Below, piece after piece: positions 616-2,090 of a stretch of 3,663 nt of DNA. The stretch comes from a virus (taxonomy: Duplodnaviria > Heunggongvirae > Uroviricota > Caudoviricetes), in IMG/VR virus record IMGVR_UViG_2877291059_000004; one strand, given 5' to 3'. Both the position numbers and the translations under genes were made by a program. The stretch's first letter is position 1. The number at the start of each line of letters is the position of its first letter. The notes under the pieces are model-generated. The model was not told the origin of the DNA. It was given only the letters and a program-made list of their open reading frames with translations, and did no database searches.

Positions 616-1338
616 TTAAGCAGCCTCCCCTGTTACTTTCAGCATTCCGTTATAGAGCAGCTTTCTGGTCAGCCACTGTTGGCCACGCCCGGTGATTTTT
701 GTGGTGAACGATATCTGTATTCCGTGATTTGTGTTGACTGCTGTTTCTTTCACTGTGAAATAGCCGCGATCCATATATTCCTGCATTGGCACATTGCGCC
801 GGGAACCTGAAGCAATAAGGATTTTGTGATCGCGCATCCACGCAAACAGTTTGTTTGGACCAATTCCAACAACCTTTGCAAAGTTTCCAATCAAAATTCC
901 GCTGGCCTCGCTAACGCGATCGGCAAACTCAACTTTAGGTGCTGCGAGAGCAAGCTGTTTCTCCAGTTCAGCCTTCTGGTCTTCAAGGTCGGCCGCAAGG
1001 CGCAATGCCTCAGAAAAGGTTTGTGGGATTTTCGCGGTTGCCCCTTCAAGCTCTCGCCAACGGTCAACAAGACGAGCGGTGAATTCCGGCGACAACTGGG
1101 CAACGACAATAATGCTGTCGCGCTTACCTTGTTCGCCTTCGAAGACGTAATGCTCGTACTGAACATTGAACCCTAAGTTATTGATTCTTTCGGAAACCTC
1201 AAATTGAGGATGCCGGATAACACCATTTTTAGCCAGCGTTTCGATGGTACGTTTCACATTGTCATGACGCTTACCCACCAACTCAGCGATTTCAATGCTG
1301 GTCATTTTGATGGCGTTGCTATTTATCAGCTCGTTCAT
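616..1338 (-). CDS. Phage antirepressor with Rha-type N-terminal domain and KilAC/ANT C-terminal domain
   Basis: Open frame 1344-616. The N-terminus MNELINSNAIKMTSIEIAELVGKRHDNVKRTIETL is a Rha family signature. The C-terminus LIGNFAKVVGIGPNKLFAWMRDHKILIASGS...MQEYMDRGYFTVKETAVNTNHGIQISFTTKITGRGQQWL matches the KilAC antirepressor domain pattern. The start is placed at the ATG at 1338 (M3) because GAGAGGA sits 8 nt upstream; the ATG at 1344 is an alternative. Confidence 0.85.
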   Translation of the reverse strand: MNELINSNAIKMTSIEIAELVGKRHDNVKRTIETLAKNGVIRHPQFEVSERINNLGFNVQYEHYVFEGEQGKRDSIIVVAQLSPEFTARLVDRWRELEGATAKIPQTFSEALRLAADLEDQKAELEKQLALAAPKVEFADRVSEASGILIGNFAKVVGIGPNKLFAWMRDHKILIASGSRRNVPMQEYMDRGYFTVKETAVNTNHGIQISFTTKITGRGQQWLTRKLLYNGMLKVTGEAA

Positions 1339-1370
1339 TGTCATGTCCTCTCATATTGAAAATTCAGCAA

Positions 1371-1394
1371 TAAAAAACCCAGCCGAAGCTGGGT
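1371..1394 (-). terminator. Intrinsic (Rho-independent) terminator between the ORF6N-like gene and the Rha gene
   Basis: Minus-strand ACCCAGC-ttcg-GCTGGGT (7-bp GC-rich stem, 4-nt loop) followed by TTTTTTA. It lies 19 nt past the stop of the upstream gene (1413-1415). Confidence 0.65.
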
Positions 1395-1412
1395 CGTTGC
1401 GTTGGCAATCTG

Positions 1413-2090
1413 TCAGTAGTGATGTAGTGAAGGAGGTAATTCTTTGTTCTTAAGTCTTACCCATGCAGAAAGATTCGTTGGTCCGTCTGGCTCATTAATA
1501 TCAACATCTCGTGTGTGATTGATTAAAACGTCTCTCGCCATTCCGATAACATACGAGAACTCATGACCGTAGTCGTGGCATCTGCCGGAATAGTTAGACT
1601 GAATTTGTCTTAGCGCCGGATACAGTTCGCGGAATAATGCCTGTGAGCGGTTGGCATAATCCCACAACCATACCAGACTGTTTGCATCTTTTGCAGAAAG
1701 CTCGCTGGTTTTCTTCTCGTGATGACCTGCGCTTTTCGAAGTCTGGCTGAAATAGCAGTCTTCCAGTTTTTCGAACACGTCCCACGCCTGATCGGTTTCG
1801 AGCATTTTGGCGTGGCGTGCGGCTCCGCGTTCTGTCCAGAGGATGAGGGAGCGGGCATTTTTACCAACTAACCCGATTGTTTCGGGTCTGTTCTTAAACT
1901 CGCGTAATTCGTTTTTTTCAATTTTAAAGTAATGCTTTCCTACCACGAATCGCATCGTGTTGTTCAGAAAATTATCAGAAATGTTTTTGATTTTTGTTCC
2001 GTATAACTGCGCCAGAAGTTCAGTTGTAATAACGCGGATCTGGTTGTGGGTGATTGCAGGAAGAGTGTCGACAGAAATTTGAGTGAGCAT
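1413..2090 (-). CDS. Phage antirepressor-like protein with an ORF6N/KilA-N-type N-terminal domain; C-terminal half unassigned
   Basis: The long ORF 2276-1413 has a non-protein-like N-terminal extension. The ATG at 2090 is preceded by GGAG 8 nt upstream and gives 225 aa starting [31 protein letters not shown]. The stretch [21 protein letters not shown]...[33 protein letters not shown] fits my recollection of the ORF6N pattern. Residues ~110-225 match no family I recognise. Confidence 0.65.

Follow-up and report, generated by a model that had tools for sequence, protein, structure and literature searches.

A Probable IsrK/C4-Type Antirepressor Cassette and Adjacent Roi-Type Gene in a Lambdoid Prophage Region

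Genes and Features of the Locus

We analyzed a stretch of 3663 nucleotides (nt) from the Caudoviricetes record IMGVR_UViG_2877291059_000004 (the window hereafter), with a focus on two neighbouring genes of its minus strand and the region upstream of them. An earlier note, made from the sequence, had described them as two antirepressor-type genes in tandem, each preceded by an intrinsic terminator. We consider the region to be a self-contained IsrK/C4-type antirepressor cassette, homologous to isrK-anrP of Gifsy-1 and working by a mechanism like that of P1 and P7, with a separate Roi-type gene behind it (probability of about 0.82). The identity as an IsrK/C4-controlled antirepressor cassette can be stated with high confidence. 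The features are given below in the order of transcription.

2336..2365, minus strand: predicted sigma-70 promoter, homologue of PisrK, with TTGACG at 2365-2360, an 18-nt spacer and TATATT at 2341-2336 (promoter scan)
2253..2329, minus strand: IsrK small RNA (sRNA), 77 nt (Rfam RF01394, full length, 70.6 bits, gathering threshold 50)
2253..2274, minus strand: terminator 1, the IsrK terminator, with the stem at 2274-2257 and U6 to 2253 (terminator scan, fold, Rfam isrK model)
2142..2226, minus strand: C4-type antisense RNA (Rfam RF01695, full length, 75.9 bits, gathering threshold 45)
2132..2138, minus strand: downstream target site 1, UUGAGAC, exact complement of C4 GUCUCAA, 48 nt 5' of the gene-1 AUG
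2099..2106, minus strand: downstream target site 2, GUACGGA at 2106-2100, complement of C4 UCCGUAC, overlapping the Shine-Dalgarno (SD) sequence GGAG at 2102-2099
1413..2090, minus strand: gene 1, ORF6N + P22AR_C protein of 225 amino acids (aa) (Pfam)
1372..1395, minus strand: terminator 2, ACCCAGC-UUCG-GCUGGGU plus U-run, with the stem at 1395-1376 and the U-run to 1372 (terminator scan, fold)
616..1338, minus strand: gene 2, Rha + KilAC protein, 240 aa from the second ATG, the likely start (Pfam, RefSeq homologue, ribosome-binding site)

The proposed head-to-tail order of an ORF6N-like gene and a Rha + KilAC gene on the minus strand was confirmed by Pfam, which also placed a P22AR_C domain in gene 1 (ORF6N, E = 1.5e-20; P22AR_C, E = 2e-28). 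The RefSeq homologue of gene 1 has an identical length and an identical start, equivalent to position 2090. The first 120 residues, which form the ORF6N domain, are 91% identical to Gifsy-1 AnrP (STM2616). Judged by sequence, gene 1 is the Ant gene of phage phi24B and the homologue of AnrP. In GenBank records it is often labelled roi, and the names Ant and Roi are swapped in many of them. In phi24B, the gene with the P22AR_C domain has been named Ant, and an ant knock-out gave lower pR' reporter output after induction (PMC3064807).

Gene 2 lies in an open reading frame (ORF) at 1344-616(-), which encodes 242 aa from ATG 1344 and contains Rha (E = 1.2e-9) and KilAC (E = 1.6e-33) domains. The second ATG, at 1338, is the likely start, because a ribosome-binding site (GAGAGGA, 1352-1346) stands before it and the RefSeq homologue is 723 nt long. 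Gene 2 fits phi24B Roi by position and by total length (242 aa), and we take it as the Roi-type gene of HK022 and phi24B. The phi24B literature calls the 242-aa downstream gene Roi and relates it to HK022 Roi (PMC3430580). The known phenotype of Roi concerns lytic growth and not the inactivation of a repressor. Thus, of the two antirepressors proposed earlier, gene 1 is the one with experimental support, whereas gene 2 bears that name by annotation only.

Promoter and IsrK RNA Upstream of Gene 1

The PisrK promoter of Gifsy-1 has been demonstrated by fusions and deletion, and it drives anrP (PMC4825925). The promoter scan returned one sigma-70-like match in the whole window, at 2365-2336, which agrees at 10 of 12 positions, ends 6 nt before IsrK nucleotide 1 and predicts a transcription start at A2329. 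Both hexamers are kept in the aligned relatives, and in Gifsy-1 a TTGACA-18-TATATT promoter stands equally far from IsrK nucleotide 1.

IsrK consists of a first hairpin, a second hairpin whose loop displays one target copy (UUGAGAC, 2304-2298), a linker with another target copy (UACGGA, 2287-2282), and terminator 1. A match to the Rfam family RF03163 (c4-a1b1) at 2342-2290 scored 45.3 bits, just below the gathering threshold of 46.7. Together with isrK and C4, this match follows the canonical order. No other Rfam family, isrJ included, was found in the window at E ≤ 1.

The two terminators placed earlier at 2251-2272 and 1371-1394 were recovered at 2274-2253 and 1395-1372. The hairpin of terminator 1 has a folding energy of −9.7 kcal/mol (z = −3.8 against shuffled sequences), and its pairing is retained via compensatory changes across the relatives. 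For terminator 2 the values are −15.8 kcal/mol and z = −4.3. Terminator-like patterns in the window were not above chance (4 found, 4.0 expected), and thus the reality of both terminators rests on their conservation. Each gene is indeed preceded by a terminator, as had been proposed; however, the first one sits 163 nt upstream of gene 1, and the interval holds the C4 RNA gene. Its position and its place in the Rfam model mark terminator 1 as the 3' end of the IsrK sRNA, which would be made from the predicted promoter of the cassette itself.

C4 RNA and Its Target Sites

The fold of C4 is a long outer stem around two hairpins, with a minimum free energy of −46.7 kcal/mol (z = −4.8; 0/200 shuffles as good). 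C4 carries two recognition elements, namely UUUCCGUAC in the loop of hairpin 2 (2185-2177) and GUCUCAA in the 3' internal loop (2170-2164). The internal loop is the exact complement of UUGAGAC in the hairpin-2 loop of IsrK, so that nucleotides 26-32 of IsrK can pair with nucleotides 160-166 of the transcript. The same element matches downstream site 1. An alternative hairpin, with 2152-2145 paired to 2126-2119, presents this site in its loop. Within the hairpin-2 loop, UCCGUAC (2183-2177) is complementary both to UACGGA in the linker of IsrK and to downstream site 2, where the SD sequence GGAG stands 8 nt 5' of the gene-1 AUG at 2090. The calculated duplexes were stronger for cognate than for non-cognate partners (−22.3 vs −17.1 and −26.0 vs −18.9 kcal/mol). 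The main control of gene 1 is thus, on this complementarity, predicted to be post-transcriptional, through pairing of C4 at the SD region, a level that was overlooked earlier.

An AUG is located in the 5' end of C4 (2222-2220) in all 37 variants that we aligned and in Gifsy-1. It occupies nucleotides 5-7 of C4 (nucleotides 2-4 in the variant L079), and in Gifsy-1 it is the start of orf45. The ORF behind it is not conserved in the 37 variants: it has 10-36 aa in nearly all of them, its frame relative to gene 1 can be any of the three, and its stop codon mostly lies 24-95 nt short of the gene-1 AUG. An SD sequence was not seen upstream of the AUG in C4 across the variants. In the window and in L079 it meets no stop, and in the window the open frame continues into gene 1 and creates a spurious ORF of 287 aa (2276-1413). 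An orf45-like coupled leader ORF was considered and rejected on this lack of conservation.

When 2091-2276(-) is translated in the frame of gene 1, a weak Pfam match to Phage_ASH appears (E = 0.0015; 19.4 bits, with the cut-off at 26). It is a possibility that the Ash protein family has been built in part on translated C4/CI-type RNA genes.

Covariation among Relatives

We explored the pairing in 80 viral contigs with gene-1 homologues (67-100% identity), from which 37 distinct upstream regions were aligned. The formal pair counts refer to an alignment of 13 sequences that includes Gifsy-1. Loops and targets are exactly complementary in the window, and this holds without exception for about 36 distinct relatives. 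The site-1 element changes jointly with both of its targets, and at least seven types exist (element/target):

GUCUCAA/UUGAGAC (window)
GUGCUAA/UUAGCAC
ACGCCAA/UUGGCGU
GUUCCAA/UUGGAAC
GUGCAAA/UUUGCAC
AUGCCAA/UUGGCAU
GUUCCUAA/UUAGGAAC

In each of the two site-1 helices (IsrK with C4, and C4 with the gene-1 leader), five of the seven pairs are compensatory and 97.8% of cells are paired; when the partner was moved by 1-3 columns as a control, 30-50% of cells were paired. The observed covariation score was reached by 0/500 shuffles. The structure of C4 itself is also supported, with 17 pairs in the outer stem (100% paired, four compensatory) and compensatory changes in 5/5 pairs of the inner hairpin. 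The stem of the alternative hairpin around site 1 is 100% paired.

The hairpin-2 loop covaries with the SD-proximal target as well, and there are seven types of site-2 loop. The column-wise covariation failed for this site, because the register or the distance from the AUG shifts between variants, and a register-free test was used in its place. All of the 16 distinct variants contain, in the 27 nt before the AUG, an exact complement of 6-9 nt to their own hairpin-2 loop. Among non-cognate combinations of loop and leader, 8.7% reached 6 nt. In all variants the site stands next to the SD sequence.

The loops are combined in a mosaic manner; for example, the site-2 loop of the window occurs with another site-1 element in the relative L047. 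The loop combination of the window is rare in our sample and was found again only in three viral contigs and in Escherichia coli RMDEC465, the closest relative among complete genomes (96.9% identity over 583-3256), whose module is 99.3% identical. Two C4 modules of different type, about 1 kb apart (at ~215 and ~850), lie in one viral locus (L057). For loci of the same genome three pairs were available, two with different loop types and one with identical types, which is too few for a conclusion.

In another relative, a viral contig (L001, 1216-2435), an IS3-family insertion element with OrfA/OrfB is located inside C4. Gene 1 is thereby cut off from the promoter, from IsrK and from the first two-thirds (5') of C4, and genes 1 and 2 are 99.4% identical to those of the window. 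In this locus the antirepressor may have been de-repressed or silenced by a natural event.

Terminator 2 and the Expression of Gene 2

The 75-nt interval between the genes, which includes terminator 2, is nearly invariant in 80 loci, whereas the flanking coding sequence is 10-30% divergent. The position of terminator 2 is that of the isrJ terminator, which closes the Gifsy-1 transcript, and we read it as the 3' boundary of the transcription unit of the cassette. The scan found no sigma-70-like site between or inside the two genes, and in 1411-1345, which we also inspected by eye, no pair of hexamers agrees at more than 4/6 plus 2/6 positions. The independent promoter for the Rha gene that could have overturned the earlier proposal was therefore looked for and not found. 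The spacing had been given as about 27 nt from the terminator to the ribosome-binding site, without room for a promoter. There is indeed no such room; however, the U-run ends 19 nt before the ribosome-binding site, and 27 nt is reached only at the first ATG.

Since terminator 2 closes the cassette and no promoter follows it, gene 2 probably needs transcriptional read-through or N-antiterminated transcription, and the earlier suggestion that it depends on read-through thus stands. In RMDEC465, the strand transcribed from PR carries NinB, Dam, NinE, a toxin-antitoxin pair on the opposite strand, the cassette, the Rha/KilAC gene, DUF1364, RusA and Q. Because the unit lies there between ninE and Q, N-antiterminated PR transcripts would cross both terminators. 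It is plausible that N-antiterminated polymerase is the source of the read-through into gene 2, and likewise plausible that terminator 2 insulates roi and Q from the cassette promoter in lysogens.

Proposed Mechanism and Alternative Explanations

Citing experiments on P1/P7 and Gifsy-1 as the source of its individual steps, we propose the following mechanism, for which complementarity, covariation and the work on homologous systems are the basis. Most transcripts that start at about 2329 would stop as IsrK at 2253, and those that read through would carry C4, either in cis or processed out of the transcript. Pairing of C4 with the leader of gene 1 would block ribosome binding and keep the antirepressor silent in the lysogen. 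IsrK holds decoy copies of both targets, and when abundant it could titrate C4 and turn translation on; the antirepressor would then promote induction. It is likely that C4 occludes the SD sequence of gene 1 and that IsrK acts as a decoy or activator. With variable loops, each cassette would answer its own RNAs only, which would amount to heteroimmunity at the RNA level. Terminator 2 would end the unit and keep the promoter activity of the lysogen out of roi and, in intact relatives, out of Q, so that roi would be expressed solely by read-through or from N-antiterminated PR transcripts.

The homologous locus of Gifsy-1 has been studied by experiment, and some steps have direct precedents there. 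Part of the transcripts pass the IsrK terminator and give a translationally silent mRNA of about 910 nt, and IsrK in trans activates its translation more than 100-fold (PMC4825925). In that locus, read-through at the first terminator is the demonstrated route to the long mRNA, which supports this part of the earlier note. G28 and G31 of IsrK pair with C162 and C159 (PMC4825925), in the same register as the pairing predicted between the IsrK loop and C4 in the window. The processed RNA STnc1160 stems from the read-through transcript, and the locus promotes prophage induction (PMC4825925).

Several points weigh against the reading as an IsrK/C4 cassette. The Gifsy-1 authors explain activation by alternative structures and a translated orf45, and not by a free C4 repressor; in their experiments the over-expressed C4-like RNA STnc1160 failed to block the toxicity of IsrK (PMC4825925). 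At site 2, the column-wise count is poor, with 48% of cells of the SD-proximal helix paired, the pairing in the window extends over only 6-7 nt, and the site-2 copy in IsrK is weak in several relatives (exact matches of 3-5 nt). Terminator 2 never varies, and it thus offers conservation without covariation. Promoter use, terminator efficiency and C4 processing in this element are taken over from its homologues, and the control may be divided between cis and trans pairing. Moreover, an IS1-family element just downstream damages the prophage, and the cassette may no longer matter biologically.

The earlier note had explained the locus by the nin region of lambda with its terminators tR2-tR4. Under such an explanation both hairpins are nin-type terminators, the genes need an N- or Q-modified polymerase from PR, and neither a local promoter nor control by RNA exists. 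It could account for the location of the unit between ninE and Q on the PR-transcribed strand of an intact relative, for the resemblance of both hairpins to real intrinsic terminators, and for the lack of a promoter before the Rha/KilAC gene. However, a conserved promoter homologous to the tested PisrK of Gifsy-1 stands just 5' of IsrK, and terminator 1 is part of the model of an sRNA family and is not a tR terminator. The three-way covariation indicates selection on RNA-RNA pairing, for which this explanation has no need. The unit of promoter, IsrK, C4 and gene is also found outside nin regions: in Gifsy-1 it follows Q, and in Shiga toxin (Stx) phage PA8 its place is early-left. It is thus no feature of the nin architecture. 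We consider the explanation improbable. What stands of it is the location between ninE and Q: gating of the tR2-tR4 type could apply to terminator 2, which lies in that interval and has no local promoter after it, and PR read-through probably contributes in lytic growth, above all to roi.

A literal transfer of the published Gifsy-1 model to the window would be a different explanation of the leader. Here an upstream ORF that starts at AUG 2222-2220 is translated, gene 1 is expressed by translational coupling, and IsrK opens the ribosome-binding site of the upstream ORF, without titration of C4. All variants keep the AUG at the C4 5' end, and its frame in the window runs without a stop into gene 1. 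In Gifsy-1, translation of orf45 was detected, and a mutation of its start lowered the activation of anrP (PMC4825925). However, the ORF is short and variable in frame, and no SD sequence precedes its AUG in the 37 variants. The pairing partner of the C4 loop is a GGAG that belongs to gene 1 itself and stands 8 nt from the AUG of this gene, and the Gifsy-1 authors themselves noted that nucleotide conservation exceeds amino-acid conservation (PMC4825925). We regard this model as unlikely for the window. It is more unlikely still that 2276-2091 is coding, that the true gene is the 287-aa ORF at 2276-1413 and that the matches to RNA families are incidental. That frame is open from ATG 2276, and its extension shows the weak, sub-threshold Phage_ASH match. 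In relatives, however, the upstream frame is broken or shifted, the RefSeq homologue begins at the equivalent of 2090, the compensatory changes in the helices ignore codon structure, and ATG 2276 itself lies within the terminator stem. The 287-aa ORF was rejected as the true gene on the RefSeq start, the broken frames and the compensatory changes.

Distribution, Neighbourhood and Significance

In some form, the cassette is present in 2423 of the 5426 complete E. coli genomes (about 45%), with up to six copies per genome. Many Stx-converting phages carry it ahead of their ant/roi genes, and the Stx phage records with the unit number in the hundreds. Three positions were observed, namely between ninE and roi (the lineage of the window), downstream of Q (Gifsy-1), and early-left near the integrase end (PA8), which argues against a nin-specific explanation. 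In the phage records and RefSeq E. coli records that we inspected, no promoter, IsrK or C4 is annotated at the cassette, and the interval is blank or carries a hypothetical protein.

One record has an odd host label for a cassette of the enterobacterial type. PP818812.1 (Actinobacillus phage vB_Apl-pPE4, H41) contains a module at 15567-15832 that is 92.9% identical to the window; the Stx phage records listed in the same search reach ~80% identity at most.

Gene 2 is followed after about 35 bp by a remnant of an IS1-family element (positions 1 to ~580, minus strand), in which an InsB-type DDE_Tnp_IS1 match is split into two stretches. Within the remnant, a segment of about 141-143 bp is duplicated in tandem (25-152 repeated at 168-293), which makes the transposase a pseudogene; an error of assembly is another possible origin of the duplication. 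Homology to RMDEC465 ends at about 583-588, from which it follows that the element replaces the DUF1364-RusA-Q genes located after gene 2 in that genome. Because the remnant interrupts the prophage, the present-day function of the locus is uncertain.

On the other side, between ninE and the cassette promoter, a toxin-antitoxin pair is encoded divergently (2411-3038, plus strand), with a Gp49/HigB-like toxin of 109 aa and an overlapping helix-turn-helix antitoxin of 102 aa. It is missing at this place in most Stx-phage relatives. In phage PA8, a HigA-like gene is likewise divergent beside the IsrK-C4 cassette. The NinE ORF (3035-3256, minus strand) encodes 73 aa, whereas the Pfam model and the RefSeq homologue have 58 aa, and at its 3' end it overlaps with the end of the gene for the antitoxin. 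Thus, the toxin-antitoxin insertion seems to have altered the C-terminus of NinE.

The regulatory principle is not new, since it is established in P1/P7 and Gifsy-1, and the cassette is an ordinary and widespread one. The practical value of the result lies in annotation and interpretation. An RNA switch explains why the leader is conserved beyond what is expected of a spacer, and it opens the study of how antirepressor-driven induction of Stx prophages is gated. In published work on phi24B, the antirepressor gene has been treated as simply PR-driven (PMC3064807). We found nothing specific on C4/IsrK in Stx phages in the literature that we searched, which does not prove that no such work exists.

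The main open angle is heteroimmunity at the RNA level among co-resident prophages of the Stx type. We tentatively suggest, while holding it somewhat doubtful, that the two C4 elements form a combinatorial address of at least 7 × 7 types, which picks the antirepressor that a given resident C4 silences or a given IsrK activates. If so, the address would be a second, RNA-level layer of immunity in E. coli with multiple lambdoid or Stx prophages, of which we found no report for phages of the Stx type. It would shape cross-induction, superinfection and toxin release, and cassettes with an insertion in C4, such as L001, would be de-repressed variants.

Comparison with Known Systems

The Gifsy-1 locus (isrK - orf45/STnc1160 - anrP - isrJ) is the closest parallel to the window. 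Both have TTGAC(A/G), an 18-nt spacer, TATATT and 6 nt to the transcription start, followed by an IsrK of 77 nt that ends in its own terminator, 26-27 nt further on by a C4-type RNA, and finally by a closing terminator. Measured from the AUG, the target sites stand near −49 and near −16 to −19; the AUG is itself nucleotide 240-241 of the transcript, and in Gifsy-1 the site-2 copy at −19 abuts GGAGG. The two loci differ in their proteins, since AnrP consists of ORF6N only, whereas gene 1 of the window adds the C-terminal P22AR_C domain. Gifsy-1 has an isrJ, which the window lacks in Rfam, and the stop of orf45 overlaps the start of the antirepressor gene there, whereas the corresponding frame runs on into gene 1 here. 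The loops are ACGCCAA/CGGUGAU in Gifsy-1 and GUCUCAA/UCCGUAC in the window. The Gifsy-1 cassette is located directly downstream of Q (antQ); that of the window lies between ninE and roi, with Q downstream in relatives.

The immI operon of P1/P7, with the order c4 antisense RNA - icd - ant1/ant2, was reportedly described by Citron and Schuster in 1990. Our comparison relies on the Rfam model for the C4 family of P1/P7 and on a review (PMC12197685). In this c4-icd-ant system, C4 blocks a ribosome-binding site, and differences between loops give heteroimmunity (PMC12197685). The window resembles it in that C4 is co-transcribed upstream of its own target, each recognition element has one upstream and one downstream site, the downstream site lies over a ribosome-binding site, an antirepressor is the product under control, and the loops would set heteroimmunity. 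However, the blocked ribosome-binding site belongs to the icd-like leader gene in P1/P7 and to the antirepressor-like gene itself in the window. The upstream target copies of the window are predicted to be released as a separate terminated sRNA, IsrK, and the host element is a lambdoid prophage here and a plasmid prophage there.

A related arrangement exists in the APSE phages of Hamiltonella, in which isrK and c4 lie by antirepressor-like genes, upstream of a BRO-N gene, and a Rha or AntA/AntB gene is next (PMC7313666). There, the first protein has a BRO-N domain and the host is a different one (PMC7313666); our own comparison of the sequences, by blastn, gave weak matches.

With phage P22, gene 1 shares the C-terminal domain of Ant. 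The sar RNA of P22 is transcribed from the opposite strand, across the ribosome-binding site of ant. In contrast, the C4 RNA of the window is encoded on the strand of its target and would act through short loop contacts, and sar and C4 are unrelated. The two systems are nevertheless alike in their outcome, as sar is an antisense RNA of the P22 immI region that blocks the translation of the antirepressor gene ant (PMC12197685).

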